39,585 nt of DNA. Source: Kiritimatiellia bacterium. GTDB lineage: Bacteria > Verrucomicrobiota > Kiritimatiellia > CAIKKV01 > CAITUY01. This document shows, piece by piece, positions 1,817-34,984 of the stretch. Under the pieces are notes generated by a model, which did not search any database, was not told where the DNA came from, and saw only the letters and a list, made by a program, of their open reading frames with translations. The stretch spans positions 1 to 39,585 of the forward strand of contig JBIJCW010000003.1 of NCBI GenBank assembly GCA_044344495.1. Reading direction: 5' to 3'. Numbering within the stretch: position 1 is the stretch's first letter; each line of letters opens with the position of its first letter. A program made the translations under genes and the position numbers.

Positions 1817-2517
1817 AGCCCCCTCAACCCGTCCTTCTTGCGTGACGCTTTGGCGCGCTCGGCGGCCATGTAGTCAGCCCAGGCGGCAATGGCCGGCACC
1901 GCATCGCACGAACACAACGCAACTCCACCTCCGATGCGGAAAGCAAACTCCTTTGACCCGTTGTGGGCAATATCCTTCGGAGCAGAGCCATTCATCACCC
2001 TCTTGTGGGGCGGATACAACACTTCATAGGCTTGCTTCACAACCGAAGACGCCGAATTTCGATTCTTGGTCGTGGGGGTAAGCATGCCGCCAAGGGCAAT
2101 CACCTTGTCCGGGCGTCCCACCAACGATGGCGGAGGCGCATAATCCTCCCATCGCCCGGGCATCATCCCCAACAGGGTCGCCTGCTCGTTCGTGGTGATC
2201 TCGCCTGCCGGCAAGACCACGGACCGCCCTTCAGCCTGCACAGGGGCCGGCGGTTCAGACTGTACCTCGGGACGAAGCCGGGAATAGATCACCAGCCCAC
2301 ACCGCGCGTCCTGACCGGTAGTCCTGACAAAAAAAAGACTGACGGCAATGTCATCCTTCATGTAGACATCCACACCCGTCAGATTGCCGATACCCGGCAA
2401 ACTCGCGATGGCCTGGCCATACCGATCCATGCATTCCAATTTGGTTTCGCCCAGGCGCGCCCAGGCGGTAACGGAAAGAGCCATCCAGAGAAACACGATG
2501 CTTGTTTTCGTATTCAC
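1813..2517 (-). CDS. Hypothetical exported protein
   Basis: Signal peptide (IVFLWMALSVTAWA) followed by RLGETKLECMDRYG. GTG start at 2517 chosen, track ORF extends to 2550. Fills the gap between batD and pdxA. Confidence 0.65.
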   Translation of the reverse strand: MNTKTSIVFLWMALSVTAWARLGETKLECMDRYGQAIASLPGIGNLTGVDVYMKDDIAVSLFFVRTTGQDARCGLVIYSRLRPEVQSEPPAPVQAEGRSVVLPAGEITTNEQATLLGMMPGRWEDYAPPPSLVGRPDKVIALGGMLTPTTKNRNSASSVVKQAYEVLYPPHKRVMNGSAPKDIAHNGSKEFAFRIGGGVALCSCDAVPAIAAWADYMAAERAKASRKKDGLRGL

Positions 2518-2676
2518 TCCTTCGTTTCCTATCACACGCTTCCTCACCACCGCAACCAGAAAAGATTCTCACACCCATTCATAATGCACCAGTCACGGCC
2601 CACACCGCCCGTTTCAGGCGCCCCTCATAACGCCGCTCTTGACTCTAATGGCTATTTTTATGACAAGGATACTGCC

Positions 2677-3699
2677 ATGACCACCACAAACCGACAACCG
2701 ACCGCCCCTTCCCGCCCCATCATCGCCCTTAGCATGGGCGATCCGGCCGGTATCGGCCCCGAGTTGTGCCTCACCATGCTGACCGATCCAACCGTTCTGG
2801 CCGCCTGCACCCCTGTCCTCTTCGGTGACGCCACCCTCCTGACGCAAGTCGCCAAAGCCACCCACATCCCCATCCGCCATCCAGTGATCCCATTCAAGGA
2901 ATGGCCCGGCGCCTGCAACCATCAGGCCTGCATCGTCGACATGGACTGCCTGGCAGGCCAAATTATCACCCCCGGTCAAGGCTCCGCCGCCTCTGGCTCC
3001 GCCGCCCATCGTTGCGTAGTCACCGCCGCCACCGAGGCCATCTCCCGCCGCGTCAACGCAATCGTCACGGCACCTCTCAGCAAAGAGGCCCTTCATCTCG
3101 CCGGTGTCCCCCATCCCGGTCATACCGAACTCCTCGCCGCCCTCACCGGAACCCGCCACTACTGCATGATGCTCAGCTCGGAGCCCATCACCACCACCCT
3201 CGTTACCACTCACACCGCTCTTGCCAAGGTACCCACCCTGCTGACACGGGACCGGATCTTGACCGTCATCCGTTTGACCGCCGCCGCCATGAAGACCATG
3301 CGGGGATCAAGCCCCCGTCTGACCGTCTGTGGCTTCAACCCGCATGGCGGCGAAAACGGACTCCTGGGCACCGAGGAACGCGACATCATCGCCCCGGCAG
3401 TCTCAATGGCGCAATCCGAGGGATACCTGGTCGAGGGCCCCCTCCCTCCAGACACGGCTTTCCTTCCCGCGCCCCTCGGCCGCACCGACGCCTACGTCTG
3501 CATGTATCATGACCAGGGGCTCATCCCTTTCAAAATGCTCGCCTTCGAAACCGGCGTGAACATCACCCTCGGCCTACCCATCATCAGGACCTCCCCCGAC
3601 CACGGCACCGCCTTCGACCTCGCCTGGACGGGGCGTGCCAACCCCTCCAGCATGCGAGCCGCCATTCTCTGCGCCATTCGCCTGGCTTCCTGTCGCTAG
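2677..3699 (+). CDS. pdxA: 4-hydroxythreonine-4-phosphate dehydrogenase (PdxA/PdxA2 family)
   Basis: Motifs MGDPAGIGPE, PGHTE, NPHGGE, YHDQG, RTSPDHGTAFD. True start is ATG 2677 inside the long track ORF 1963..3699. Confidence 0.93.
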   Translation: MTTTNRQPTAPSRPIIALSMGDPAGIGPELCLTMLTDPTVLAACTPVLFGDATLLTQVAKATHIPIRHPVIPFKEWPGACNHQACIVDMDCLAGQIITPGQGSAASGSAAHRCVVTAATEAISRRVNAIVTAPLSKEALHLAGVPHPGHTELLAALTGTRHYCMMLSSEPITTTLVTTHTALAKVPTLLTRDRILTVIRLTAAAMKTMRGSSPRLTVCGFNPHGGENGLLGTEERDIIAPAVSMAQSEGYLVEGPLPPDTAFLPAPLGRTDAYVCMYHDQGLIPFKMLAFETGVNITLGLPIIRTSPDHGTAFDLAWTGRANPSSMRAAILCAIRLASCR

Positions 3700-3724
3700 A
3701 TCCATAGATGACCCCTTGACACTC

Positions 3725-4600
3725 ATGAAAATCGATTCCATCACTGCCCTGCTCCTTGCAACTCTCCTTGGCGCCGGGTGCGGCAATCCGCAACCCACCC
3801 CTCCCCCGGTCACGGGCACCAAGGCACGCGTTGCCTCCCTCGCCCCCAGCGTCACGGAAATCGTGTATGCCCTCGGCGGAGCCGATCAACTCGTCGGCCG
3901 ATCCTCCGCCTGCGACTACCCCCCCGCCCTCGCCGCCCGCCTGCCCGTCGTCGGTGATTTCGGCGCCCCCTCCATGGAACGCCTTCTGGCCACCCGGCCG
4001 GATCTGGTCCTCTACACCGACCTCGCCGACGCGTCCATCCCCACCCGGCTGACCCGTGCCGGCCTCAACCCTGTCTGTATCCCCTGCGCACAACTCGACG
4101 ACATTCCCCCGGCCATCAGGACCGTCGGCCACCTGCTGGGGCGCGACTCCATCGCCACGAATCTTGCCTCCACCATGGAATCGCACATCGCCTCCTATCG
4201 CCGCCAGATCCCCCCGCCGGAACAACGCCCCCGCGTCCTCGTCCTCATCTGGAACGATCCCTTGACGGCCGCCGGAAATAAGAGTTTTCTTACGGAACTT
4301 ATCACGCTGGCCGGTGGAAAAAATGTGGCCGACACCATCCAGCGCGACTATTTTCAGGTCTCCGGGGAATGGGTCGTAAGTCGTGACCCGGATGTCATTC
4401 TCTGTTTCTTTATGGCAAGCACTGTACCCGCACGCGAAATGATTCTTAACCACCCCGGCTGGAGCGGCGTCAAAGCCGTCCGGTCTGGCCGGGTCTATGC
4501 CGGCATGGACAACAACCTGGTCCTCCGTCCGGGGCCGCGCCTGATTGAAGGCATCGAGACCATCCAACGCTGCCTGCGGGAGTCCCATGACAAGCCGTGA
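3725..4600 (+). CDS. Cobalamin/Fe-siderophore ABC transporter substrate-binding lipoprotein (BtuF-like)
   Basis: Lipobox LGAGC, RVASLAPSVTEIVYALG, CDYP, and RPGPRLIEG helical-backbone receptor motifs. Confidence 0.88.
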   Translation: MKIDSITALLLATLLGAGCGNPQPTPPPVTGTKARVASLAPSVTEIVYALGGADQLVGRSSACDYPPALAARLPVVGDFGAPSMERLLATRPDLVLYTDLADASIPTRLTRAGLNPVCIPCAQLDDIPPAIRTVGHLLGRDSIATNLASTMESHIASYRRQIPPPEQRPRVLVLIWNDPLTAAGNKSFLTELITLAGGKNVADTIQRDYFQVSGEWVVSRDPDVILCFFMASTVPAREMILNHPGWSGVKAVRSGRVYAGMDNNLVLRPGPRLIEGIETIQRCLRESHDKP

Positions 4601-5558
4601 TCGTCATTTTTATCTGGTCGTCGGAATCAGTCCCGCTATCCTCATCCTGTGCCTCCTCATGGGCCCCGCCGGCATCGGCCTGCCTGACTGGACCACGCAG
4701 CACGAGATCCTTCTCCTCCGGGTGACCCGCATCCTCGCCGGATTGATCGTCGGCGCCGCCCTCTCAACAGCCGGTGTTGTACTCCAGGCCATCCTGCGGA
4801 ATCCGCTGGCCGAACCCTATGTGCTGGGAGTCAGCAGTGGCGCGGGCCTCGGCGCCGCCCTGGCCATCCTCACCGGGTTCTCTGCCCTGGGCCCGTTCAC
4901 GCTTCCTTTCACCGCCTTTCTTCTGGCCGTCGCCACCCTGATCGCCGTCTACGCCCTGGCCTCGAACTCCGGCGCCACCCCGTCGCTCTACGGCCTCATT
5001 CTCAGCGGCGTCATCGTCAGTTCGGTGTGCTCCAGCCTCCTGATGTTCCTGGTCTCAGTGGCCCCGGTGGAAGGCATGCACAGTATTCTCTGGTGGATGC
5101 TGGGGAACCTGGACATCGCATCGAACGCCCTGCTGGCCGCCACCGGCGGCGTGGTGCTGGCAGGTTGCATCGGCATCTGGCTCCTCGCGCCGGAGTTCAA
5201 CGCCCTGACCCTCGGCCATGATATGGCCCACTATCTCGGCATCCGTGTCCGCCTGGCCATCGGCGCCGGTCTCCTCCTGGCCACCTTGATCACCGCCGCT
5301 TCCGTCGGCATTTCCGGATTGATCGGCTTTGTCGGCCTGGTTGTCCCGCATATCATGCGCAATCTCGTGGGTCCCGATCACCGTCGCCTCATCCCCGCCT
5401 CGGCCTTGGGCGGCGGCGCCTTCCTCGCCGCCTGCGACGCCCTGGCTCGCACCCTCCTGTCCGCCGAAATCCCGGTGGGTGTCGTCACCGCCCTCGTCGG
5501 GGGCCCCTTCTTCCTTTTCCTGCTCCGGAAACGCCAGAAGGACCAGTGGTTATCATGA
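4587..5558 (+). CDS. FecCD/BtuC-family ABC permease
   Basis: LRNPLAEPYVLGVSSGA, GLIGFVGLVVPH, EIPVGVVTALVGGPFF; very hydrophobic. Confidence 0.93.
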   Translation: MTSRDRHFYLVVGISPAILILCLLMGPAGIGLPDWTTQHEILLLRVTRILAGLIVGAALSTAGVVLQAILRNPLAEPYVLGVSSGAGLGAALAILTGFSALGPFTLPFTAFLLAVATLIAVYALASNSGATPSLYGLILSGVIVSSVCSSLLMFLVSVAPVEGMHSILWWMLGNLDIASNALLAATGGVVLAGCIGIWLLAPEFNALTLGHDMAHYLGIRVRLAIGAGLLLATLITAASVGISGLIGFVGLVVPHIMRNLVGPDHRRLIPASALGGGAFLAACDALARTLLSAEIPVGVVTALVGGPFFLFLLRKRQKDQWLS

Positions 5559-6841
5559 AAACCGCCCTCCACCTCAACCACGTCACCGCCGGCTACCGGA
5601 ACAACGCCGTGCTTCACGATGTTTCCCTGCAGGTCCTCGAGGGGGAAATGATAGGCATTCTTGGCCCAAACGGCGCCGGAAAATCCACCTTGTTCAAAGT
5701 TCTATCCGGCTGGCTCGCCCCTCAATCAGGCACCGTCTCCATCTTCGGGAATCCCATTCAACGCATCCCCCCGCAGGAACGAGCCCGCTACCTCGCCGTG
5801 GTTCCCCAGGAACTGGATATCCCCGTCCCCTACTCAGTCGAGGAAGTTGTCATGATGGGACGAACCGCCTCCATCGGCCGCCTCGCCAGCCCCTCCGCGA
5901 AGGACTGCCAGATCGCCGAACGTGCGATGGCCTACACCGATGTGGCCGACATCCGCCACCGCCCCCTGAACGAACTGAGCGGCGGCGAACGCCAACGGGC
6001 CATCGTGGCCATGGCCCTCGCACAGGAACCGCGCATCATCCTGATGGACGAGGCCACGTCCCGGCTGGATATCAACCATCGCCTGGAAATCATGCAACTG
6101 GTTGAACGTCTGAACGCCGAGAGCGGCGTCACCGTCATGATGATCAGTCATGACCTCCAACTTGCCGCCGAATTCAGCCACCGGTTGATCATGCTGGATC
6201 ATGGACGGATCGTCGCCGATGGACGCCCCGCCGGGGTCCTGACCGAAACCGCCCTGCGTCAGGTCTATCACTGCGACGTACGTGTTCATGAGGACACCCG
6301 CACCGGATCGCTCAGCATCCTGCCCGCCCCCCGGTTGCACGGCGGCAAAACCGGCAACGGCATCTCCATCCACGTCGTCGCCGGCGGCGGCTGTGGCGAG
6401 GAAACCTTACGCCGCCTGGCCCTGAGCGGCTATACCCTCACCGCAGGCGTCCTGAACCAGGGTGATCTCGATGCCGACGTTGCCACCGCCCTCGGCGCCC
6501 GGGTCGCCCTGGAACAACCCTTCTCCCCCATCAGCCCCGCGGCACTGGACAAGGCCATGGAATTGGTCACCGCAACCACCGCCGCCGTCCTGACTCCCGT
6601 CCCCTTCGGATCCGGCAATCTGGCCAACCTGGCTCTGCTGGAACGCATTCAAGCAGCAGGCCAGCCTGTCTTTCTGGCCACGGGAATCGAAACACGGGAT
6701 TACACACTGCACAAGGAAGCCGTCACCAGGGTTAACGCCCTCCTGAACCGGGGTGCAATCCCATGGCATGATGTGGCCGAACTCGCCGCCTTGCTTCCCC
6801 ACACCACCCCTCATCCCCCCGCCGTCTCCGGAAACAAATAG
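5555..6841 (+). CDS. Corrinoid/iron ABC transporter ATPase (BtuD-like) with C-terminal extension
   Basis: Walker A GPNGAGKST, LSGGERQR, ILMDE, SHD, then an extra domain IHVVAGGG...TAGVLNQGDLD...PFSPI. ATGA overlap with the permease stop. Confidence 0.9.
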   Translation: MKTALHLNHVTAGYRNNAVLHDVSLQVLEGEMIGILGPNGAGKSTLFKVLSGWLAPQSGTVSIFGNPIQRIPPQERARYLAVVPQELDIPVPYSVEEVVMMGRTASIGRLASPSAKDCQIAERAMAYTDVADIRHRPLNELSGGERQRAIVAMALAQEPRIILMDEATSRLDINHRLEIMQLVERLNAESGVTVMMISHDLQLAAEFSHRLIMLDHGRIVADGRPAGVLTETALRQVYHCDVRVHEDTRTGSLSILPAPRLHGGKTGNGISIHVVAGGGCGEETLRRLALSGYTLTAGVLNQGDLDADVATALGARVALEQPFSPISPAALDKAMELVTATTAAVLTPVPFGSGNLANLALLERIQAAGQPVFLATGIETRDYTLHKEAVTRVNALLNRGAIPWHDVAELAALLPHTTPHPPAVSGNK

Positions 6842-11709: not shown

Positions 11710-11786
11710 GGCGAATGTAGCTCAGTTGGTAGAGCGCCAGATTGTGATTCTGGTGGTCGCGGGTTCGAGCCCCGTCATTCGCCCCA
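11710..11786 (+). tRNA. tRNA-His (GTG)
   Basis: G-1 GCGAATG...CCAGA-TTGTGAT-TCTGG...GGTTCGAGCC...CATTCGC C CCA; G-1:C73 His identity element. Confidence 0.97.
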
Positions 11787-12404
11787 TCCCTTGCCATCCT
11801 CCAGGATTTCAGTCCATTCCTTTTGCTCCTTATCGATCCCTTGGCGCACCCTTGCCCCGTCAGAAGTCCCGCTAATCCACTTCATCTCCCGCTCGGCATT
11901 GGTGAAGTCCCCAACTTGAGCGTACATCGCCGCCAGTTCCGCATGGTTGTAGGGCTCCCAGAACTGCCAATCTGTGAACACGCGCCAGAACCGGATAGCC
12001 TCCGATGGGGATTGCTCCCACAAGAATCGCACCTTGAGCCGGCGCAGTTGCCCTTTCCATCCATTCTGCACCAACCCGCGATCGCACCACACCGCCGCCT
12101 GATCCATCCGCCGCTTCCTTGCCCCTGGCTCCACCGCCCCCGCCGTGTAATACGCCTTCTCAGCCGCCAAAATGCTGAAGTAATAGTTTTCCGGGTACAA
12201 CACGTAGGCTCGGCGACAAAGCTCCAAAACCTGTTCCGTATCAGACCCGGCCTTCCCGTACCTGGCCGCATGGTAGTAGCACTGCGCCACCCCGGCACGC
12301 AGACTGTGCCACACCCCGGCCAAAGCCACCATTACCATAAAGACCCCAACCAGGGCCATAAACCATGGATCGTTGGTGCTACGCTGTAACATATTCATGG
12401 TCAA
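11775..12404 (-). CDS. Membrane-anchored TPR-like hypothetical protein
   Basis: One N-terminal TM helix (WFMALVGVFMVMVALAGVW), then helical repeats (YPENYYFSILAAE, WEPYNHAELAAMYAQVGDFTNAE). Confidence 0.7.
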   Translation of the reverse strand: MTMNMLQRSTNDPWFMALVGVFMVMVALAGVWHSLRAGVAQCYYHAARYGKAGSDTEQVLELCRRAYVLYPENYYFSILAAEKAYYTAGAVEPGARKRRMDQAAVWCDRGLVQNGWKGQLRRLKVRFLWEQSPSEAIRFWRVFTDWQFWEPYNHAELAAMYAQVGDFTNAEREMKWISGTSDGARVRQGIDKEQKEWTEILEDGKGWGE

Positions 12405-12422
12405 CCGGAAAGCTCACCTGCC

Positions 12423-12456
12423 AAACAAAAGAGCCCCATCCGCTCGGACAGGGCTC
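12423..12456 (-). terminator. Intrinsic terminator after the Thr-tailed protein gene
   Basis: Minus strand GAGCCCTGTCC-GAGC-GGATGGGGCTC followed by TTTTGTTT. Confidence 0.8.
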
Positions 12457-12486
12457 TCTCAACGTCCAATTCAACCACCTTCTCGA

Positions 12487-13074
12487 TTAACGACGCCCAA
12501 CCGGAGTCGGACTCGGCTTTGTGGTCGTCGTGGTGGTTGTCGTGGTAGTTGTCGTCGTGGTCGTCGTCGACCCGCCTGGGCCTTCCGGCGGCTTGGAGAT
12601 GATCTCGTTGATCTTTTCGGAAATCATCTTGGCTTTCGCCGCTTGCTTGGCGGCTTCGGCCGCCGCCTTCGCCGCATCTTCTTCATTGCCTGCCGCTTTG
12701 GCGGCTTCGGCCGCCGCCTTCGCCGCATCCGCCACCACACGCAGTTTCTCCAATAGCAGCTTCAGTTTTGCCACCTTCTTCTCTGCCACCATCAGCGCCT
12801 TCCGGGCATCCGCTAGCACCTTCTTGGCCTCCTTGATCTTTTCAGGATCATTGGATAGATCAGCCTGCTGCAGATCGGCTTCGGCTTGCTTTACCGCCAC
12901 CCCTGCTTTCTCAACGTCTTTCTCGGCATTGGTCAGGGCATCGTGCCCACTCTTCAACAGCACTGCGGCTTCTTCCGCCGACTTGGCTGCCGCATCCGCC
13001 GCTGCCCCCGCCTTGACCACCAACGGCACCATCACCATCATCGCCACCAGACTCATTGCTATCCACTTGCTCAT
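12487..13074 (-). CDS. Secreted Ala/Lys/Glu coiled-coil protein with poly-Thr tail ending KPSPTPVGRR
   Basis: AGGAG RBS, signal peptide, helical body, 16 consecutive Thr encoded by all four Thr codons, own promoter and terminator. Confidence 0.85.
   Translation of the reverse strand: MSKWIAMSLVAMMVMVPLVVKAGAAADAAAKSAEEAAVLLKSGHDALTNAEKDVEKAGVAVKQAEADLQQADLSNDPEKIKEAKKVLADARKALMVAEKKVAKLKLLLEKLRVVADAAKAAAEAAKAAGNEEDAAKAAAEAAKQAAKAKMISEKINEIISKPPEGPGGSTTTTTTTTTTTTTTTTKPSPTPVGRR
12647..12729. repeat. 32-bp direct repeat (2 copies, 51-bp period) encoding DAAKAAAEAAK
   Basis: ttggcggcttcggccgccgccttcgccgcatc at 12647-12678 and 12698-12729. Confidence 0.85.
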
Positions 13075-13119
13075 GTCACATCTCCTATTGAAACATCGAT
13101 GCCCACACTAACCTTCAAA

Positions 13120-13148
13120 AGTATCCTTGAAGCCCCGCCCACCGTCAA
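13120..13148 (-). promoter_or_regulatory. Sigma70-type promoter of the Thr-tailed protein gene
   Basis: TTGACG-17 bp-GATACT in the wza to Thr-protein spacer. Confidence 0.6.
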
Positions 13149-13163
13149 GCACTTCACACACCC

Positions 13164-13871
13164 TCAGTACCATGTCTTTGGCACTTCGATCACATCACCC
13201 GGTATGACCATGATGTCCTTCTGCTTGCCTTTGCGGATATCATCCGCATTAATCACCAGAATCTCGGTTCCTCGGATCAAACGAATCTTGGTCGGATTGG
13301 CATACTCGGTAAAACGCCCTCCACGCCCCAGCGCCTGTAGCACCGTCAGGTTCCGCGTCAACGGATAGGGACCGGGCCGCAACACCTCCCCGGCCAGCGA
13401 GTACTCGCTCTCGGGCGGAACGATAACCACCGTGACCACCTTGTAATACTTTTCATCAATGTACTTCCGCTCGATGATTCGCTGGGCATCGGCACAGGTT
13501 TTACCAGCCACCTGCATGGCGCCGATCAACGGCAGATTGATCCGCCCCTGCTCATCAATCACATGCGCACAGGTGAACGGCTCGGGCGGCGCATAAATTG
13601 TCACCTGCAACCGGTCACCACTCTTAAGGACCCGACTGGTGTTGAAAAACGTGGCCTCCACCTCATTCGTCCCGATGGCCACCGCCGGCGGGGGATTGAC
13701 CGCCGAGGGGGAGGTTCTCAGAAGATCAACGGATACCGGTTCCACCTGCGGCCGATAGGGAGGCAGGGACTCCTCCGAGGAGGGCAGGGACACACAGCCG
13801 GACAACACCGCCACCAGCATGACGCCAGCCAGCTCCATCATCGTCATTGATTGCTTCATCTTGGAAATCAT
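13164..13871 (-). CDS. Short OPX/Wza-family polysaccharide export lipoprotein (Poly_export domain plus one SLBB)
   Basis: Lipobox LSGC, LKSGDRLQVT, IDEQGRINLPLIG, GEVLRPGPY, PGDVIEVP. No C-terminal outer-membrane helix. Confidence 0.9.
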   Translation of the reverse strand: MISKMKQSMTMMELAGVMLVAVLSGCVSLPSSEESLPPYRPQVEPVSVDLLRTSPSAVNPPPAVAIGTNEVEATFFNTSRVLKSGDRLQVTIYAPPEPFTCAHVIDEQGRINLPLIGAMQVAGKTCADAQRIIERKYIDEKYYKVVTVVIVPPESEYSLAGEVLRPGPYPLTRNLTVLQALGRGGRFTEYANPTKIRLIRGTEILVINADDIRKGKQKDIMVIPGDVIEVPKTWY

Positions 13872-13892
13872 CCGATCACCAGATACTCCTCG

Positions 13893-16082
13893 TCAACCCT
13901 TGTCGCCCGTTCCACCGGATGCCGCCGGTGCCGGAGTGGGCATCTGCCCTTCCTTCACATCACGCCGATCACGCGACTTGCCGTAGGAGTAGTTGTAATA
14001 CGAATTGTAGTAGTAGTAGTAATCCCGGGATACATTCAGATTATTCAACACCACCCCCAGGAAATTGGCACCCACATTCTCAATCATGGCCTTCGCCCGA
14101 CTCGACACCGCCTTGGGATAGCTGCGGTGTTGCACCACCAGCAGAACGCCATCCACTTCACTCGCCAAAATCGACGCATCACTCACCCCCATGATCGGCG
14201 GCGAATCAAAAAAGACATAGTCATACCGACTCTTGACCTGCGCCATGATATCCCGCAGGTGGCGCGCCGTCAGAATCCCGTGCGAAATGGACGGCAACTT
14301 GCCACTGGGCATGAAATCAATGTTCGGCACCGCATCTCTCAGGATCGCCTCATTCACCCCGATCTTTCCCAGCAGGACATCCGTCAACCCCTGCTTGTTC
14401 GGAACCTTGAACATCTTGTGCTGGGTGGGCCGCCGCATGTCGGAATCAATAACCAGTATCTTCTTGCCCGTCTGGGCACAAACGCAGGCCAGATTGAAGA
14501 GCGTCAGCGACTTACCTTCGCCTGCCCCGCCACTGGTAAAACACAACGCGTTCCCGCCACCCAACTTCTTGGATAGCTCCATGTTCATCCTCAATACCCG
14601 GTAGGCTTCCGCATGAGGACTCTCGCTGCCCTCATCCGTCAACGGCCGCACCTTCTGGGGAATGACCCCGATAATCGTGGCGCCCAGGAAACGCTCAATG
14701 TCCTCCACGGTCTTCACCGACGTATCCACGTATTCGATGAAGAACACCAAACCGATACCGCAGGCAAGGCCAAGAACAATACTCAACACGATATTCAATG
14801 CCATCTTCGGACTGACCGCATCGCGCTCATCCGGAACTTCGGCGAAATCAACGACATCCACGGGCGTCCTCGGCAGTTCAAGCTCGATAGCCTCCTGCAC
14901 CAACCTCGTTTCCAGCGTGTCACGGATTTGCCGCTGGCGTGTCAATTCACTCTCCGCCTTGGCAAACGGCAGGTAACGTTCGCCTTGCGCGTTGATATCG
15001 CTCTTCTTGGCGTCCTCAATATCCTTCTCCGCTGCCTCAAAATCGCGACGGGCAATATCATAATCCGTCTGCAACCCCATGACCTGCCCTTTGAGTGTTT
15101 CATCAATCTTCTTTATCAGGTCGGCCACCACACCTTGCGCACTGATCACATCCGGATGCTTTTCGCCATAGGTTTCCTGACGCCGCTTCAATTGCGTCTC
15201 CGCTTCAGTCAGCTGCTGCCGCAGTTGCGTCAGCGTCGGGTCCTGAATCACATAGGCGGCCGAATAGAGTAGATCGCGCCCTTCCAACCGATTGAGAGCC
15301 TCCAGCCGCGTCTGCCGCTCCAGCATGTTCTTGCGGGCTTGAATACGGTTAAGCTCCAGCCGTTCCAACTTGGCATTGTCCAGCGAAGACACGGACCCCG
15401 GCTGGCTCCCCGCCAACACACTCACCTTCAATTCCTTGCGCAACACCTCGACATTCGCCTCAGCCTCAACAACCTTCTTCTGCTGGGCTTGATAAGCCTC
15501 GCGCAAAGCCACCACACCCTGCTCGGTCTCGGACCGGTTCTTCTGCATCCGGTGATCCCGGTACACATTCGCAATCTCATTGGCAATCTTGGCCGAATCA
15601 TCCCGGGCCGTCGCCCGATCACCCCGCCGGCTACTGCGATAGATCCTGACTTCAATCAGGTTCGTGTCCCGATACTGCTGCACCTTCATGCTGTCCATCA
15701 GGATCTTGTAGGCATCTGACAGCGACAAGGGCATCCCGTCATCCGAATACAATTTTCCAAAATGATCCCGCAAGGAAAGATTCTGAATGACCTTGTAGAG
15801 AATCGGACGCGATTGAATGATCTCGAACTGCGTCCGCAGAAAATACATGTCGTTGACGGTCATCATCTGCTGTTGCTGCTTGTACTGGAACGGGGTCACG
15901 CTGGGCACGTCCTGACGGACGGCGATTCGCGTGGACGCCATGTACACTTTCGGCAACGACAGGGTGGTCACCACCCCCGCCAGCACCACAAATAGAAATA
16001 CGGCAATGACCACTTCCTTGCGGGATCTGACCATCCGCCAATAATCCATGAAATGCGCATTTTCCTGTGGAGTTTCCGCCAT
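13893..16082 (-). CDS. Polysaccharide co-polymerase / BY-kinase (Wzc/GumC family)
   Basis: Two TM helices flanking a coiled coil, Walker A GAGEGKS, A' DSDMRRP, B FFDSPP, Tyr cluster DYYYYYNSYYNYSY. Confidence 0.93.
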   Translation of the reverse strand: MAETPQENAHFMDYWRMVRSRKEVVIAVFLFVVLAGVVTTLSLPKVYMASTRIAVRQDVPSVTPFQYKQQQQMMTVNDMYFLRTQFEIIQSRPILYKVIQNLSLRDHFGKLYSDDGMPLSLSDAYKILMDSMKVQQYRDTNLIEVRIYRSSRRGDRATARDDSAKIANEIANVYRDHRMQKNRSETEQGVVALREAYQAQQKKVVEAEANVEVLRKELKVSVLAGSQPGSVSSLDNAKLERLELNRIQARKNMLERQTRLEALNRLEGRDLLYSAAYVIQDPTLTQLRQQLTEAETQLKRRQETYGEKHPDVISAQGVVADLIKKIDETLKGQVMGLQTDYDIARRDFEAAEKDIEDAKKSDINAQGERYLPFAKAESELTRQRQIRDTLETRLVQEAIELELPRTPVDVVDFAEVPDERDAVSPKMALNIVLSIVLGLACGIGLVFFIEYVDTSVKTVEDIERFLGATIIGVIPQKVRPLTDEGSESPHAEAYRVLRMNMELSKKLGGGNALCFTSGGAGEGKSLTLFNLACVCAQTGKKILVIDSDMRRPTQHKMFKVPNKQGLTDVLLGKIGVNEAILRDAVPNIDFMPSGKLPSISHGILTARHLRDIMAQVKSRYDYVFFDSPPIMGVSDASILASEVDGVLLVVQHRSYPKAVSSRAKAMIENVGANFLGVVLNNLNVSRDYYYYYNSYYNYSYGKSRDRRDVKEGQMPTPAPAASGGTGDKG

Positions 16083-16184
16083 GCTTGCCTTCCTAAAATG
16101 CTGACGAGGCTTGGACAGCCTCACCAGTCTCCGTCATCATTGCCTTCCCAGCAGCCTGCCGACCGTAGCCGACAACCGATTGGA

Positions 16185-17372
16185 TCAGAACGAGGCCCTC
16201 ACTCCCATATCGCAGATGCTACGATCAAACGATTCGCGCACGTCGGAATCCCAGTTCTCATAGGTGTATCCGCCGGTCAAGGACCAGATGCGATCCATCT
16301 TGAAACTGCCCCGCAAAGACACCGACTCAAGCTTATCAGACCCGCCCGGCAGATCCGCCCCTTCATTATCATAGTCACCATTGCTGAACTGTCCATGGAG
16401 CGTCAGGGTCAGACGAGCCGTAACATCGTGCTCCACTTCCCCCCAGATGCTTGTCAACTGCTGGACTGAGTAAGGACGGACATACGGCGCAAAAAACCCG
16501 TACATCGCTCCGAGACGGACCCGGGTCGGCGACGCCGCACGAAGCGTAACATCGGCGGAACCATAGGCGGAGTCCCCTGACTCCAGATCAGCAGCATCAT
16601 ACGTCGCCGTCTGGTAACCGCCCATCACCTTGCCCGTAAAATCAGGACTGAACATCCGCTCGGCCCCCGCTGCATACGTCATCACCTGTGACCCGCGACT
16701 CCTTGCCTTGGATTCGTTGCTAAAGTCGCTCACCCCGATCACCCCGAACACGTTCACTCCGGAACCCATGAGATACTTGAGATAGGCATCCCCCTTCAGA
16801 ATGTCCTCATCCTGCTCATCGGCGACCACCTGCTCATCGAAGCGTTTCACAACACTTTCACCCTGCACATAGGTGCCCACTTTTTGAGTCAGTTCCGCCG
16901 TAACGCCGGCCCGCGCCGTGTTCAGCCAATAGTTCGCGCTCTGCCGCACACTGGCGCCTCCGACCGTGATATCAGGATCATCGGTGTACATCACGACATC
17001 CGACAGATCCACATTCACACGGCGGGTTACCATCTGCTTCAGATCCACCCCCAGCGAGCCGTAGAGCTCCTGGTCGTTCTGGGGGTTGCCTTCCTCGGTC
17101 GAGCGTGGATTGCTGTGCCATTTGACACCAGGCGACAGGAAAAGATTCAGCAGGGTACGGTCACCATCTCGCCACCGCAGATCACCCCGAACGTCAGCGG
17201 TAATATCCGCATTGGATTCCTTGTTCGCTTTCGCGCCGTCGCGGTTATCGGTATACTGCGCCCCCACCCCCGCCGAAAAGGCCCAAGGATCGCTCGCCAG
17301 GTCCTGCGCAAGCGTAGCCGAAACCAACAACAACATACCCAACGCCACTACAACCGCTTGCGTCCATTTCAT
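16185..17372 (-). CDS. Outer-membrane beta-barrel protein associated with EPS export
   Basis: GAGGAG RBS, signal peptide, alternating beta-strand pattern, C-terminal beta-signal MGVRASF, first gene upstream of wzc. Confidence 0.85.
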   Translation of the reverse strand: MKWTQAVVVALGMLLLVSATLAQDLASDPWAFSAGVGAQYTDNRDGAKANKESNADITADVRGDLRWRDGDRTLLNLFLSPGVKWHSNPRSTEEGNPQNDQELYGSLGVDLKQMVTRRVNVDLSDVVMYTDDPDITVGGASVRQSANYWLNTARAGVTAELTQKVGTYVQGESVVKRFDEQVVADEQDEDILKGDAYLKYLMGSGVNVFGVIGVSDFSNESKARSRGSQVMTYAAGAERMFSPDFTGKVMGGYQTATYDAADLESGDSAYGSADVTLRAASPTRVRLGAMYGFFAPYVRPYSVQQLTSIWGEVEHDVTARLTLTLHGQFSNGDYDNEGADLPGGSDKLESVSLRGSFKMDRIWSLTGGYTYENWDSDVRESFDRSICDMGVRASF

Positions 17373-17435
17373 ACGTAATTCTCCTCTATTCCTAGATATC
17401 AATAACTAATTCTCTTATCCAAGTAAGGCATCATG

Positions 17436-17515: not shown

Positions 17516-18295
17516 ATGAAGCTAATCATCCAGCAATTCTTCTACATGGTCGTCATGGGATCTGCCTCCATGGCCTTGGCCGGAGGGGTGATGGAACTCT
17601 ACCCCTCCGCTCCCATCGCCGAGACCACCCTCGCCACTGAGTCTCCCACCGAACCCTCCGCCATCCGGAATGCCAACGCCGTTTTCGGCGTCCAGGGTCC
17701 TTGGGCACCGCCCAACACCAGCGCCTCCGATGAATCCTTCGGCATGCGGCGGTTGCCGTCGATTCTAAAATCGATCGCCTGGGGCAGGAAAATGGCCTCC
17801 ACGCCCCGTCCGGCAGGTGCCGAGACCTTGATGCCGAAGTTGAAGGCCGTCTTTGCCAGCGAAGGCGTCCCTCCCGAACTGGCATGGATCGCTGAAGTTG
17901 AGTCCAGTTTCGACCCTGCGGCCACCAGTCGCTCCGGCGCCTGCGGACTCTTCCAGTTTATGCCAATCACCGCCAAACGCTTTGGCCTGCTGACCGAATC
18001 AGCCGACCAGCGCACCGACCCCGAACCCTCAGCACGGGCCGCCGCCCGCTACCTGTCGCTCCTCTATAAACGCTTTCAGAACTGGCCCCTCGCCCTCGCC
18101 GCCTACAACGCCGGGGAAGGTCGCGTTGAGCGCCTGCTGAAAAAGCACAACGCCGGCTCCTTCAGCGAAATCGCGTCAGATCTCCCTGTCGAAACCCAGG
18201 AATACGTCCCCAAAATCATGATCACACTGGTCCTGCGGGAAAGAACCCATCTGGGCGCCCTGCCCTCCCCGGAAATCAGTCCCACATTGAACTGA
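17516..18295 (+). CDS. Lytic murein transglycosylase (SLT/MltD-type catalytic domain, no LysM)
   Basis: AEVESSF (catalytic Glu), GACGLFQFMP, ALAAYNAGEG, ETQEYVPKI; signal-like N-terminus. Confidence 0.9.
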   Translation: MKLIIQQFFYMVVMGSASMALAGGVMELYPSAPIAETTLATESPTEPSAIRNANAVFGVQGPWAPPNTSASDESFGMRRLPSILKSIAWGRKMASTPRPAGAETLMPKLKAVFASEGVPPELAWIAEVESSFDPAATSRSGACGLFQFMPITAKRFGLLTESADQRTDPEPSARAAARYLSLLYKRFQNWPLALAAYNAGEGRVERLLKKHNAGSFSEIASDLPVETQEYVPKIMITLVLRERTHLGALPSPEISPTLN

Positions 18296-20568: not shown

Positions 20569-22353
20569 TCACACGGAACCATCCAGCGTCCTGCGTACAT
20601 TATCAGCCAGAATTTCCTGCGTGTAGGGCTTCGTGATGCAGCGATCATGCTTAAAATCAAGCCCGTGATGAGCAACCGCCTCCTGGCCAAAACCGGTCAC
20701 ATACAACACCTTGAAATCCTGCCTCATCTTGCGCGCCGTCGCCACCAGTTCCAACCCACTGATTTCCGGCAGCACCACATCCGTCAGGATCAGATGCAAC
20801 GGCTCCGCGCGTTCCTCACAAACCTTGAGGGCGTCTTTCGCGCTAGTCGCCTCAATCACCGTGTATCCCAGGAAAGAGAGCGCACGCCCGGCAAAGGCAC
20901 CCACTGCCTGGTCATCCTCCACCACCAGCACCGTCTCGCAGCCACGGGGCAGGCTCTTGCTTACCCCCCCTTCGGGAGGAGTAACCTCTGAAACAATGCT
21001 GCGGAAGAATATCCGGAATTCCGATCCCATCCCCATCTTGCTTTCCACCTCAATACACCCCTGGCACTGCCGGACAATCCCGTACACCGTCGACAACCCC
21101 AGTCCCGTCCCCTTTCCTTTTTCCTTGGTCGTGAAAAATGGCTCGAAAATCCGCTCCCGGACATCCGAACTCATGCCACATCCATAATCCTTCACCACCA
21201 GTACCCCGTAGGTCCCCGCTTCAACAGCGACATGCATCCGGCAATACTCTTCGTCGAGCACCGCCCTCCGCGTGCTGATCGCAAGGGTACCGCCCTGTGG
21301 CATCGCGTCACGCGCATTCACGGCAAGATTCAAGATGATTTGTTCCACACCACCGGAATCCCCCTCCACCAACCCCACGTCATCCGCCAGTTGGATGTTA
21401 AGCGACACATCCTCCCCCAACGTCCGCTTCAGCAGAAGCACCATGCTGCTGACAACCTCATTCAAATCCAAGGCCTTGATTTGCAATGCCTGCTTCCGCC
21501 CAACCGCCAGCAGTTGCGCCGTCAACTTGGCAGCCCGTTCCGCCCCGTTAATGACCTCCTTGATATCCTCGCGGACCGGATGATCTTCGGCCAATGACTC
21601 CAACGCCAGGTTGGAAAACCCGAGAATCGATGTCAGCAGGTTGTTGAAATCATGAGCCACCCCGCCGGCCAGAAGGCCCAAGGCCTCCATTTTCTGTGCC
21701 TGCCTCAACTGGGCTTCCCGCTCAAGCAGCAACTCCTCCACATTCTTGCGTTGCGTCGCATCCCGCAGAAGCAGCACGCTGCCGCCATGGCTTTTCAACA
21801 GACCCGTAACAATCTCCAACGGGAAGGTCTTGCCGTCTTTCTTCCGCCCCGTCGCCCAGCCGATATGAAACCCCTCCCTCTCCAGCGCATCATAGATTTC
21901 ATGCTTGGCCCCAGGCACACGCCGCCGGTCAAAATACAGCAACTCTGTCTTGCGACGGATAACCTCTTCCATCGCGTAGCCAAACATGCGACACACCGAC
22001 GCATTCACCATCAGGATGTTGCGATTGGCATCCACCACGAGAAGCACATCCGGATTGATACTGTCGATAATGTCTTCAAGTTCCTGATTCCTCATAGCCT
22101 CGGCACGCCATCGAAGGTAGGACGTCACCAGCATGATGATTAGCCAGAGCGCGAGGAAATTTGTGACAAGCACAACCGCCGGTTGTTCGGCGTGTGGCTT
22201 GAAAAACGCGATGAGGCGCTCATTGAAGTTGATGGCGGCCCCCACCATCGTGACCACGAAGGCCAACACCAGGGAGAACGTCAATGTTCGCCATTCCCGC
22301 CGACTCCATGCCAACAACCGCATGGGATCCCTGTTCCTTCTCACTATATTCAT
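20569..22353 (-). CDS. Membrane hybrid sensor kinase (2 TM, PAS, HisKA, HATPase, receiver)
   Basis: GGVAHDFNNLL, NLAVNARDAM, DYGCGM, FFTTKEKGKGTGLGL, receiver VEDD/LTDVVLP/TKP. Confidence 0.95.
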   Translation of the reverse strand: MNIVRRNRDPMRLLAWSRREWRTLTFSLVLAFVVTMVGAAINFNERLIAFFKPHAEQPAVVLVTNFLALWLIIMLVTSYLRWRAEAMRNQELEDIIDSINPDVLLVVDANRNILMVNASVCRMFGYAMEEVIRRKTELLYFDRRRVPGAKHEIYDALEREGFHIGWATGRKKDGKTFPLEIVTGLLKSHGGSVLLLRDATQRKNVEELLLEREAQLRQAQKMEALGLLAGGVAHDFNNLLTSILGFSNLALESLAEDHPVREDIKEVINGAERAAKLTAQLLAVGRKQALQIKALDLNEVVSSMVLLLKRTLGEDVSLNIQLADDVGLVEGDSGGVEQIILNLAVNARDAMPQGGTLAISTRRAVLDEEYCRMHVAVEAGTYGVLVVKDYGCGMSSDVRERIFEPFFTTKEKGKGTGLGLSTVYGIVRQCQGCIEVESKMGMGSEFRIFFRSIVSEVTPPEGGVSKSLPRGCETVLVVEDDQAVGAFAGRALSFLGYTVIEATSAKDALKVCEERAEPLHLILTDVVLPEISGLELVATARKMRQDFKVLYVTGFGQEAVAHHGLDFKHDRCITKPYTQEILADNVRRTLDGSV

Positions 22354-31422: not shown

Positions 31423-33900
31423 TTAGGCTCTTACCTTCGCCCCGGCAACAATCCGGAACGCCAAGCCTCCATCCGCTTTGACAACCTCGACCTTCTCCGC
31501 CCCCTGCAAATCGCCGCGCAGAATCTCTTCGGCTAACGGATCCTCCAGATAACGTTGCACCGCACGCCGAAGCGGTCGAGCCCCCATAGCCACATCAAAC
31601 CCTTTCTCCAGCAGGAATTCCTGCGCAGCGGTGGTCAGCACCAGGTCAATCCCTTTCGCCTCCACCCGTGCGTGAACTTTGGCCACCTCCAGGCCAAGAA
31701 TCTTGACAGTATCCTCTCTGGACAGTTGACGAAAGACCACGATTTCATCCAGCCGGTTGATAAACTCCGGCTTGAACACCCTTTTTACATCGTCCAGCAT
31801 GCGTTGCTTGAGCGATTCGTAATCAATCGCACCACTGGATTCAGTGAATCCAAGTCCCGCCTTTCGGCCAAAATCAGCCCCGAGATTGGTGGTCAATATG
31901 ATCACCGTATTGCGGAAATCGATGTGCCGTCCAGAACTGTCGGTCAACCGCCCCTCTTCCATGATCTGGAGCAACATGTGCATGACGTCGGGGTGGGCCT
32001 TTTCAATTTCATCAAACAACACTACTGAATACGGACGACGACGCACCTTCTCCGTCAGTTGCCCTCCCTCCTCGTATCCCACGTAGCCCGGCGGAGACCC
32101 CGCCAGTCGCGAAACAGTGAATTTCTCCATGTACTCAGACATATCAAGTTGAATCAAGGCATTCTTATCGTCGAACATGAACTCAGCCAATGCCTTCGCC
32201 AACAAGGTCTTGCCAACCCCGGTCGGCCCCAGAAAAACAAACGAACCAATCGGTCGCTTTGGATCCTTCAGGTCGGCACGCGAGCGCCGCAGCGCCTTGG
32301 AGATCGCCGTGATAGCCGGATTCTGCCCCACCACTGTTTCGCCTAGCTCCTCTTCCATGTGAAGCAGACGGGCTAGCTCCTTGCCCTCCATCTTCTTCAG
32401 AGGCACCCCCGTCCACTTGGAAACCACCGCCATGACTTCATCCGCCGTGACTTTCACCTTGCGCTTTTGGGACGATTCTCGCCATTTTTTGACGCTTTCT
32501 TCAAGCGCCTCACGCTCCCGGCGCTCCAAATCGCGCAATTGGGCCGCTTCCTCAAACTTCTGGGCCTTGATCGCCGCTTCCTTCTGGATCCTGATCTTCT
32601 CGATTCCCTGTTCCTTCTTTCGTAAATCGGGCGAGCGAGTCGTCGCCTGGATCCGCGCCCGAGCCCCAGCCTCATCAATGGTATCAATGGCCTTGTCCGG
32701 CAGGTGACGCCCTGTAAGATATCGGTCCGTCAACCGGGCCGCCGCTTCAAGGGCATCATCGGTAATCTTAACCCCATGGTGCTCCTCATACTTGTAACGG
32801 ATTCCTTTCAGAATCCGAATGGCCTCATCCACCGTCGGCTCGTTAACCTGCACAGTTTGAAAACGCCGTTCCAGCGCGGCATCCTTCTCGATGTGCTTAC
32901 GGTACTCGTCCAGCGTCGTCGCCCCAATACACTGCAGCTCACCCCGCGCCAGAGCCGGCTTGATGATGTTCGAGGCATCCATGGTCCCTTCCGCTGAACC
33001 CGCCCCCACAATCGTATGCAATTCATCGACGAACAACATCACGTTCGCTGAACGGCGGATCTCATCCATCACCGCCTTGATCCGTTCTTCGAACTGTCCA
33101 CGATACTTGGTGCCAGCAATCATCAGTGCCAGATCCAGAGCAATGACACGCTTGTTCCGGAGAATATCGGGGACCAATCCCTGTGCAATCACCTGGGCAA
33201 GCCCCTCGACAATCGCCGTTTTCCCCACCCCGGCATCACCAAGCAATACCGGATTGTTCTTGGTCCGCCGACAAAGAATCTGAATAACGCGCTCCAATTC
33301 CGGCTCACGTCCGATCATCGGATCCAATGACCCCTTCCGCGCCATCTCCGTCAAATCCCGCCCAAAGGCATTCAAGGCCGGAGTCTTCTGCTTGACCGAC
33401 GGGGGTGCCTGCTTGGTCTTGGGCTCCGGGGCCGCAGATTCCTCTCCAGGCTCGAAATTAGGATCAAGTTCCTTCATGACTTCGACACGCGTCGTATCAA
33501 CATCAACATTCAAGGCCCGCAACACTTGAGCCGCCACCCCTTCGCCTTCCCGTAACAACCCCAGCAGGATATGCTCGGTTCCGATATAGGAATGATTCAA
33601 GGTGCGGGCTTCGGCCGCCGCCAACTGCAGGACCTTCTTCGCCCGCGGCGTGAAGGGAACATTGCCAACCGTCTTGGTTTCCGGCCCTTGCCCAACCGCC
33701 TTTTCAACCTCCATCCGCAAGGCCTCGAGGGATATACCCATCCGATCAAGAACCGTCACCGCAACCCCCGACCCCAACGCCACCAACCCCAGTAGAATAT
33801 GCTCCGTCCCCACATAGGGATGATTAAATCGTTCCGCCTCAGACCTGGCCAATTGAATGACCTGCTGGGCCCGTGGCGTGTAGTTTCCTGAGTTTCCCAT
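31423..33900 (-). CDS. clpC: ATP-dependent Clp protease ATPase ClpC
   Basis: Two Clp-N repeats, [11 protein letters not shown] middle domain, [21 protein letters not shown] ClpP-docking loop. Confidence 0.96.
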
Positions 33901-33922
33901 GATTTCACCCCATCCTCGCGGA

Positions 33923-34984
33923 TTAACCTTCTATGGTAGCCCGCCTGACAACTTCCCTCACTCTTGACGCCCTCAACTCATCCCGATCTTCCGGCTTCAC
34001 ATGCTGTCCCGCCGACTTTTGAAGATGCCCGGGCTGCGAACATAACGTCAACCTGTTAATATCCGACATTCCCAACCCCTTAATCATACCAAGATCGAAC
34101 CCAAGGCGCAATCCGGAGAGCAGATCAAGGGTCTCACACGAGGTCAGCACGCGCGCATGGCACAAAACACCATAGGCCCGTCCAATAAAATCCCGAATCC
34201 GATTCTCCCGCTGCTCCATCAGACGGGCCCTGGCATTCCGCTCATGGTTGGCAATTTCATTCACAATCTGAACCAACCGCTCGATAATCACAACCTCGGC
34301 TTCACCCAGCGTGGTTTGATTCGAAATCTGAAACATGTTCCCGGACGCTTCCGTCCCTTCCCCCAACAGGCCACGCACCACCAGTCCGATCTTGCCCAAC
34401 CCTTTGATGATCGGCTCGATTTCATTCGTTAGTCGCAAGGCCGGAACATGCATCATCACACTGGCTCGCAACCCGGTACCAACATTCGTCGGACACGCCG
34501 TCAGATATCCAAGTTCAGGCGAAAAAGCATAGCGAACCTTCTCCTCAATCTCCGAATCCAACGTGTTTATCTCACTCCAAAGCTCATGCAGATGGAATCC
34601 AGGCCGCATTGCCTGCAGACGAAGATGATCCTCTTCGTTCACCATAACCCCAAGCACCTCATCCTGTCGCACCACGAGACAACTCCCCCGTGACTTCCGC
34701 GCCAACTCCAAACTAATCAGATGACGCTCATGGAGGAAGTCCTTGTCGTGGAGCGGAATGGCCGCCATGTCTACACCCATGGCCGGGTCAAGGGCCTTCA
34801 CCACTGCCAGCACTTCCTCCACTTGCCGCTGAACCCGCAAACACTCATCTTCCCCTGCCCATCCCGGAAAGGCCAACCCATGCAGATTGCGAGCCAGCCG
34901 AATCCGACTGCTGATGACAACCATGTCGCGCCCGTCTTCGGGCAACCACGCCCCGGGCCTGCCTGCCAAGTCATCCAGCGTCAT
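33923..34984 (-). CDS. mcsB: Protein-arginine kinase McsB
   Basis: [39 protein letters not shown]. Confidence 0.95.

Follow-up and report, generated by a model that had tools for sequence, protein, structure and literature searches.

The stretch of DNA analysed here (the window) is the 39,585-nucleotide contig JBIJCW010000003.1 (C12) of a metagenome-assembled genome (MAG) of a Kiritimatiellia bacterium (assembly GCA_044344495.1; 2.30 Mb in 270 contigs, 85.7% complete). It carries five minus-strand open reading frames (ORFs) that follow one another head to tail from 17402 to 11775, with intergenic gaps of 60, 21, 89 and 82 nt. The first three encode a β-barrel, a Wzc-type polysaccharide co-polymerase (PCP) fused to a bacterial tyrosine (BY) kinase, and a short outer-membrane polysaccharide export (OPX) lipoprotein, which together constitute a known system, the composite Class-3 OPX/β-barrel translocon. 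The last two, denoted P4 and P5, are the new part: conserved companions of the export module, of which P4 is a secreted coiled coil and P5 has a fold resembling tetratricopeptide repeats (TPRs). With moderate confidence, we read the five genes as the export and chain-length operon of a Wzx/Wzy-dependent exopolysaccharide (EPS) pathway, in which P5 would serve as a scaffold and P4 would be bound to P5. The features of the locus are as follows.

16185..17402, minus strand: barrel, Wzp/EpsX-like (PF10082, BBP2_2); the likely start is the ATG at 17372
13893..16124, minus strand: Wzc-type PCP-2a co-polymerase with fused BY-kinase (Wzz, GNVR, AAA_31, TIGR01007)
13164..13871, minus strand: short Class-3 (D1D2) OPX lipoprotein (Poly_export, one SLBB, LSGC lipobox)
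12487..13074, minus strand: P4, secreted coiled coil with a run of 16 Thr and a C-terminal PSPTPVGRR (sequence, ortholog alignment)
11775..12404, minus strand: P5, a TPR-like solenoid rich in Trp and probably in the periplasm, preceded by a single membrane helix (AlphaFold2 model, hhalign)
11711..11786, plus strand: tRNA-His(GTG), convergent, boundary of the operon (ARAGORN)
17516..18295, plus strand: SLT gene beyond the barrel gene (Pfam)

An earlier note on this DNA, made from the letters alone, had described five co-oriented genes bounded by tRNA-His and an SLT gene, and all of these were found in place. It had also stated that the locus lacked any glycosyltransferase, Wzx, Wzy, phosphatase or exosortase, and a Pfam scan of 29 window ORFs returned none of them. 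Terminator-like sites in the operon numbered 4, compared to a shuffle mean of 4.4, and none was intergenic; the promoter-like sites were consensus matches only.

The arrangement of the genes is not due to chance, since it recurs in related genomes. DNA flanking P5 was collected from related loci in three sets, comprising 20 loci, 8 loci (L083–L090) and 16 more distant loci. (L081 and L082, which end before the slot, were not counted.) The order barrel–Wzc–OPX–(gene)–P5 was seen in 20/20, 8/8 and 16/16 of these, or in all 44 loci that had P5 and enough contig. In 29 of the 44, OPX and P5 are separated by a gene for a secreted protein of ≈190–290 aa, a number that takes P4 by position and includes the six most distant intervening genes on position only; in the other 15, P5 follows OPX directly. 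The flanks on the barrel side vary across families, while P5 stays directly after OPX or OPX–P4. The earlier note had proposed that its reading would stand or fall with the conservation of the last two genes beside wza/wzc in relatives; by this measure P5 came through in full, and the P4-position gene in part.

P5 is widespread within the class. When 61 relatives were queried with single proteins, P5 was found in 44 and P4 in 31, and a Wzc ortholog (E ≤ 1e-60) was present in 56, mostly in single copy, with full-length matches at 38–96% identity. A P5 profile (E ≤ 1e-20) matched 72 of 301 sampled genomes of the class, with one short copy in each, and was absent from several large families (f14, 0/15; f19, 0/33; f23, 0/14; f24, 0/21; f30, 0/19; f31, 0/12). 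The same profile, searched against 1.84 billion representative proteins (50% identity clusters), matched 237 clusters (E ≤ 1e-3), of which 160 had E ≤ 1e-30, and the best 150 of the 237 were all 132–249 aa long. None of 61 database matches to P5 had a functional name; those that were named at all were called “hypothetical protein”, save two TPR repeat proteins labelled by JGI. A search for related loci with the single P5 protein yielded one true relative and one weak match, and a look-up in the ESM Atlas returned generic short TPR hypotheticals only.

The triad of barrel, Wzc and OPX could be assigned from its domains. The barrel is the first gene of the module in all related loci examined. 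It matches PF10082 (BBP2_2) over residues 46–404 (E 3.3e-16), and its AlphaFold2 model, made from 19 sequences, has 18 long strands at a mean predicted confidence (pLDDT) of 87.5. The Foldseek matches listed for it in the Protein Data Bank (PDB), 47 in all, were generic porins and TonB-dependent receptors, with TM scores of ≈0.5 to the 18-stranded Occ channels. Wzc contains Wzz, GNVR and AAA_31 domains and matches TIGR01007 (E 1.4e-48). The Wzz–GNVR periplasmic region lies between two membrane helices, and the kinase part has a Walker A motif (GGAGEGKS) at residue 532, a Walker A′ (ILVIDSDMR) at 556, a Walker B (VFFDSPP) at 637 and a C-terminal cluster of ten Tyr in 13 residues from 702. These are the features of a PCP-2a with a BY-kinase, and they bear out the earlier description of a Wzc BY-kinase with intact Walker motifs and a Tyr cluster. 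The OPX protein is 235 aa long, with an LSGC lipobox, a Poly_export domain (residues 81–149) and one SLBB domain (158–230); since it ends at residue 235, there is no Wza_C or GfcC domain. This places it in Class 3 (D1D2), defined as Poly_export plus one or more SLBB without Wza_C or GfcC in the sections of PMC9603273 that treat the classification.

Composite translocons of this type, built from a short OPX, an 18-stranded barrel and a PCP, are described from Myxococcus xanthus and as widespread in the relevant passages of PMC9601211, PMC9603273 and PMC12819527. Like EpsY/EpsX/EpsV and WzaB/WzpB/WzcB of M. xanthus, the module has a Poly_export–SLBB lipoprotein OPX without an outer-membrane-spanning helix, the gene for an 18-stranded barrel, a PCP, and an aromatic C-terminus on the OPX. 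The latter is Trp-Tyr here (relatives end in WY, RW, AF, SW or LV) and resembles the C-terminal Phe-Phe of WzaB, which is needed for porin binding according to the part of PMC12819527 that deals with it. There are also differences from the M. xanthus systems. PCP and kinase form one protein here, the module lies apart from all glycosyltransferases, and P4 and P5 are two extra conserved genes after OPX. The barrel gene is in the same operon as OPX, but with wzc in between, here and in all related loci, and is thus not immediately adjacent to OPX as it is in M. xanthus. A term search of PMC12819527 gave no mention of TPR, coiled-coil or accessory proteins, and the TPR passages seen in PMC9601211 concern synthase-dependent pathways.

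P5 has no match in Pfam or NCBIfam, including the Pfam TPR models and Wzy_C. Its AlphaFold2 model (19 sequences; pLDDT 92.5) starts with a hydrophobic helix (residues 13–49) and continues as a helical repeat solenoid, for which the best PDB match was a consensus TPR (8cqp_C; E 1.5e-3, TMt 0.76). The modelled solenoid is of the helix-turn-helix kind by which a TPR domain would be recognized, in agreement with the earlier description of a single-transmembrane TPR-like protein. Residues W140, W146, W149, N153 and H154 are invariant across the 19 sequences, which share 27–86% identity. In most of them, the flank on the N-terminal side of the hydrophobic helix is more positive than that on the C-terminal side, suggesting a topology with the N-terminus in the cytoplasm and the TPR domain in the periplasm.

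The origin of P5 is indicated by loci of the class that carry the triad without it. Of ten such loci, eight have a Wzy_C gene (E 1e-21 to 1e-26) as the next gene downstream of OPX. Its product is 628–667 aa long in seven of these loci, with C-terminal TPRs in the same ORF; in the eighth, the putative TPR-like part is in a separate ORF. The other two of the ten loci carry other genes in this place. The P5 hidden Markov model (HMM) matched the tails of two of the long proteins (E 2.1e-11 and 5.1e-4), and an hhalign comparison of P5 with the Wzy_C-TPR tails gave 97.8% probability (E 9.5e-13), with residues 20–191 of P5 aligned on the last membrane helix and the whole of the tail. P5 is best read as homologous to this part of the Wzy_C-TPR proteins found in other families of the class, and sits in the same slot after OPX. 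Unlike them, it has no Wzy_C membrane domain (with one helix and the tail alone shared, it falls outside PF04932), and the invariant Trp/Asn/His block is its own, being not conserved in the long forms. A literature search gave no description of the function of Wzy_C-TPR tails, on which a dedicated study may exist.

A partnership between a periplasmic TPR protein and a polysaccharide barrel has precedents. In synthase-dependent pathways, TPR scaffolds partner with barrels, as described in the corresponding passages of PMC9601211. Like AlgK/AlgE, PgaA, BcsC and PelB, the module would combine a TPR protein with a 16- to 18-stranded polysaccharide barrel, the periplasmic position of P5 being predicted. 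Unlike these, P5 has an N-terminal helix as its anchor, presumably in the inner membrane, and is neither an outer-membrane lipoprotein nor fused to the barrel, and the pathway uses Wzc and OPX without a synthase.

The genes for P5 and tRNA-His, which run towards each other, overlap at their 3′ ends. The overlap covers the last 12 nt of P5 (11775–11786), corresponding to the last three codons and the stop. The junction recurs in relatives, where the P5 frame enters the tRNA complement, so that the strand complementary to the tRNA acceptor end codes for the C-terminal GWGE of many orthologs. In one relative (L067) the P5 frame continues through the tRNA, and in several others a stop codon stands just ahead of the GWGE stretch.

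P4 starts with a signal-peptide-like N-terminus, followed by a helical region rich in Ala, Lys and Glu, a run of exactly 16 Thr (residues 170–185) and the sequence KPSPTPVGRR. It is the only one of 19,308 stop-to-stop frames (≥60 aa) in the genome with a run of at least seven Thr. In 13 orthologs (30–88% identity), the signal peptide and helical blocks are kept, and a Thr run and TP.G, 2–3 residues from the end, are invariant. Across families, however, the Thr run goes from 16 residues to none (it is short or absent in the positional orthologs L085, L087, L090 and L126), while PTPxVG and the basic residues are kept. The earlier description of P4 as a secreted coiled coil with a Thr16 tail thus holds for the run itself, which is present, but the conserved element is the PTPxVG-basic end and not the run. 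A Pfam scan (E ≤ 0.01) gave only two sub-threshold matches for P4, to SSP160 and DUF1090. The 196-aa antisense ORF with a poly-Val run that mirrors P4 (12521–13111, plus strand) is no gene, but the reflection of the Thr run in another reading frame.

The tail of P4 is modular and portable, being common to coiled coils and to proteins with FecR domains. Secreted FecR-domain proteins ending in a Thr run and SPTPVG[DE]R were found in three genomes of two other families (L100, 763–1614; L113, 631–1548; L114, 1491–2396), and one genome carries a second coiled-coil copy with the tail. Each of these FecR-domain genes is followed by a gene for a putative PpiD-like protein with a hydrophobic N-terminus, of more than 430 aa (a lower bound, set by the end of the locus), and has no OPX gene beside it. 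A strict DNA pattern of the tail occurred in 14 of the 301 class genomes, with none for the reversed control. Of the 72 genomes with P5, 13 had the pattern, versus 1 of the 229 without P5 (a genome that is 79% complete), but since 11 of the 14 pattern-bearing genomes come from one family, this co-occurrence is confounded by relatedness and is not independent evidence. A search with the tail alone (residues 150–195) against a set of 5.8 billion proteins gave three candidates, none of them significant.

Two known kinds of secreted protein were compared with P4. The earlier note had drawn an analogy to PEP-CTERM proteins, which did not hold up: P4 has no PEP motif, no membrane helix and only two residues after PTPVG, it has no PEP-CTERM match in Pfam, and the exosortases of the genome are on other contigs. 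A sorting signal of this type was rejected. The locus as a whole does recall PEP-CTERM/exosortase EPS loci (EpsL barrel, EpsE OPX, EpsF/G PCP-kinase, PrsT TPR lipoprotein) in that there are weak, below-threshold matches to EpsL, EpsE, EpsF/EpsG and PrsT-like models, but all matches to NCBIfam models stay below the curated cut-offs, the locus has no exosortase, and P4 lacks the Arg-cluster architecture. Pfam also holds a YjbE/GfcA family, to which the Pfam scan of P4, at the same threshold as above, gave no match. Like the gfcABCDE-etp-etk and yjbEFGH operons of E. coli, the module encodes a small Thr-rich secreted or membrane protein together with a barrel, an OPX and a BY-kinase. P4 differs from GfcA and YjbE in being roughly double their length, in consisting mostly of coiled coil and in bearing a defined motif at its C-terminus. 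The gfc operon differs further in having a 26-strand or multi-barrel protein as GfcD and a full-length Wza as GfcE.

The association of P4 with P5 was examined by complex prediction with residues 35–209 of P5 and 24–195 of P4, in three runs and with three controls. The interface score (ipSAE) was 0.65, 0.66 and 0.65, compared to 0.00 for the best of the three controls. In calibration, 116 of 157 solved complexes attained the pass mark, as did 2 of 215 mismatched pairs, counts that hold only roughly for this complex because it was predicted with our own alignments. Agreement between the runs was at least 66% of contacts, with partner pLDDT of at least 81. The confident contacts join P5 residues 132–135, 163–165 and 196–203 to the P4 helices 106–120 and 147–154. 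The models support binding of P4 to P5 through the P4 helices and not through the tail. We had expected the TPR groove of P5 to hold the C-terminal peptide of P4; this was not supported, as no tail residue was among the confident contacts.

The biosynthesis genes missing from the locus are present elsewhere in the genome. There are three Poly_export matches, including the OPX of the window, and outside the window three matches to exosortase, three to Bac_transf, three to Wzy_C, one to Wzx, one to PEP-CTERM and three to low-molecular-weight (LMW) phosphatase. Contig C61 (18.8 kb) carries, between 143 and 17154, a phosphoglycosyl transferase, an exosortase, an EpsI/DUF3485 ORF, WecG, four GT2 glycosyltransferases, Wzy_C, Wzx and a methyltransferase. 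This is a complete Wzx/Wzy EPS synthesis locus, and there is no OPX, PCP or barrel on the contig. The earlier note had suggested looking for wzx, wzy, glycosyltransferase and exosortase genes elsewhere, and all of them were found together on C61. Its premise of an export module without biosynthesis does not stand, considering the full set on C61, the LMW phosphatases elsewhere in the genome and the alignment of P5 with a Wzy_C-TPR tail; the splitting of export and synthesis into separate loci explains why the biosynthesis genes had seemed to be missing. C61 is the best candidate for the locus served by the module, by elimination only.

A second export-type module is found on C32 (2485–7947), and consists of a BBP2_2 barrel, a 173-aa ORF without family match, Wzy_C, a GNVR/AAA_31 PCP-kinase and a hybrid histidine kinase. 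It contains its Wzy gene inside and ends with the hybrid kinase; in the window, a hybrid PAS histidine kinase/receiver (20569–22353) lies ≈3 kb from the barrel gene. The genome's best match to the membrane part of the long Wzy_C-TPR forms (23–30% identity, E down to 4e-15) is a tail-less Wzy_C on C240. There (2653–5707), the Wzy_C gene is divergent from that of a GT-C enzyme (PMT_2/ArnT-like, by weak matches), with a DUF6785/DUF6784 protein downstream.

In the mechanism that we favour, a Wzc octamer in the inner membrane would pass the polymer to a ring of the short lipoprotein OPX under the outer membrane, and the polymer would leave the cell through the 18-stranded barrel. The repeat units would be made by genes on other contigs, with C61 as the best candidate. 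P5, anchored by its N-terminal helix and with the TPR domain probably in the periplasm, would be the counterpart of the tail, with the last helix before it, of the polymerase/ligase-like Wzy_C-TPR proteins. It may have retained the tail's function in docking, as a separate scaffold at the Wzc/OPX machine. P4 would bind P5 through its helices, leaving a flexible Thr/Pro linker and the conserved PTPVG-basic end.

Several points weigh against this reading. AlgE, PgaA and BcsC were not among the 47 Foldseek matches listed for the barrel. Profile scores between TPR proteins are inflated by repeat similarity, and the plain HMM of P5 matched only two of the seven long forms; homology between P5 and the Wzy_C-TPR tail is nevertheless the better reading, because the two occupy the same operon position and the membrane helix lies within the alignment. 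The short form may have arisen by splitting or truncation, or the long form by fusion. The genome has two further OPX genes and the barrel/Wzy/PCP module on C32, any of which bears on the link to C61. P5 cannot depend on P4, since it is present without it in 15 of the 44 loci, and the conserved tail of P4 takes part in no confident contact of the complex model. Finally, the reading draws on sequence and models, from a MAG that is incomplete and in many contigs.

The earlier note had preferred a surface-glycoprotein or EPS-anchoring system in which the Thr/Pro tail of P4 is O-glycosylated or carries the polymer and is exported or anchored by the barrel, OPX and Wzc, with P5 as an accessory factor. 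We consider this unlikely. The precedent closest to it is GfcA, by analogy: in the part of PMC8592465 that describes it, E. coli gfcA (30% Thr) shares its operon with genes for a barrel, an OPX and a BY-kinase, and the authors suggest that its product may be glycan-modified and exported through GfcD. The retention next to OPX of P4, or of a gene in its position, in 29 of the 44 loci, the spread of the tail to FecR-domain proteins, its concentration in genomes with P5 and the GT-C gene beside Wzy_C on C240 would all fit such a role. However, the co-occurrence with P5 is confounded by relatedness, as described above, and several positional orthologs have a short Thr run or none, while PTPxVG and the basic residues persist. 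The Pfam scan of the window ORFs gave no oligosaccharyltransferase in the locus, and the modelled contacts between P4 and P5 are helical, without the tail. Furthermore, the cargo of described Wzc/OPX systems is a polymer built on undecaprenyl-phosphate (PMC12802240, in its treatment of these systems), and no report of a protein cargo was found in the portions of the Wzc/OPX literature compared.

P4 and P5 could also belong to the architecture of the envelope, for example as a periplasmic strut or tether like Lpp, co-transcribed with the triad by happenstance and with no direct role in export. P4, as a secreted coiled coil whose C-terminus is short and basic, would suit this purpose, the neighbourhood in the module's family is of the housekeeping kind (tRNA-His, TsaB, a SurA-like peptidyl-prolyl isomerase), and the tail-bearing FecR-domain genes elsewhere adjoin the putative PpiD-like gene without OPX. 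Against it, P5 stays directly behind OPX in all 44 loci, which come from many families, while the barrel-side flanks change, and where P5 is missing a Wzy_C-TPR gene fills the slot, which ties the position to polymer assembly; we regard this account as decidedly improbable. That the two genes have no function, P5 being left over from a truncated Wzy gene and in decay, and P4 a spurious low-complexity ORF, is barely credible. P5 does lack the Wzy_C domain, and P4 is compositionally biased and mirrored by the antisense poly-Val ORF. Yet a remnant would not be expected to hold its invariant residues over 19 sequences at 27–86% identity, a fold of high confidence, 160 clusters at E ≤ 1e-30 and a single intact copy in each of 72 genomes, nor would a spurious ORF keep a signal peptide, helical blocks and a C-terminal motif at 30–88% identity. 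The pseudogene was rejected for P5 on conservation. The operon reading, with P5 as a scaffold of the Wzc/OPX machine, is the one that we retain.

Two other features of the window were noted outside the locus. At 31423–34984, the gene for a ClpC/ClpB-type AAA+ chaperone adjoins that for an ATP:guanido phosphotransferase (McsB-like), a pair best known from Firmicutes. At 1963–3699, a 578-aa ORF has a PdxA domain over residues 281–571 only, and its long N-terminal extension could come from a wrongly placed start or be a domain that was added.

The tail of P4 occurs on two types of protein that are unrelated and is a candidate C-terminal tag of a new kind, and the locus is a second, independent case, after the gfc operon of E. 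coli, of a Thr-rich protein encoded with a barrel, an OPX and a kinase. Taken jointly, these features allow a bolder proposal, which we put forward as speculative and rather unlikely. The Thr run, P(S/T)PTPVG and basic end might be a new portable tag on unrelated secreted proteins (P4 coiled coils and FecR-domain proteins), marking them for O-glycosylation or polymer attachment, and P5 a polymerase tail turned TPR receptor that couples the tagged proteins to the Class-3 OPX machine. If this were true, the locus would build a protein-anchored glycan layer, and not merely free EPS. Class-3 OPX systems are the commonest polysaccharide exporters in diderm bacteria, and their connection to polymerization at the inner membrane is still being worked out. 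As a free-standing TPR protein that is the counterpart of a polymerase tail and is encoded beside OPX in at least 72 genomes, P5 is a concrete candidate for this connection between polymerization and export.

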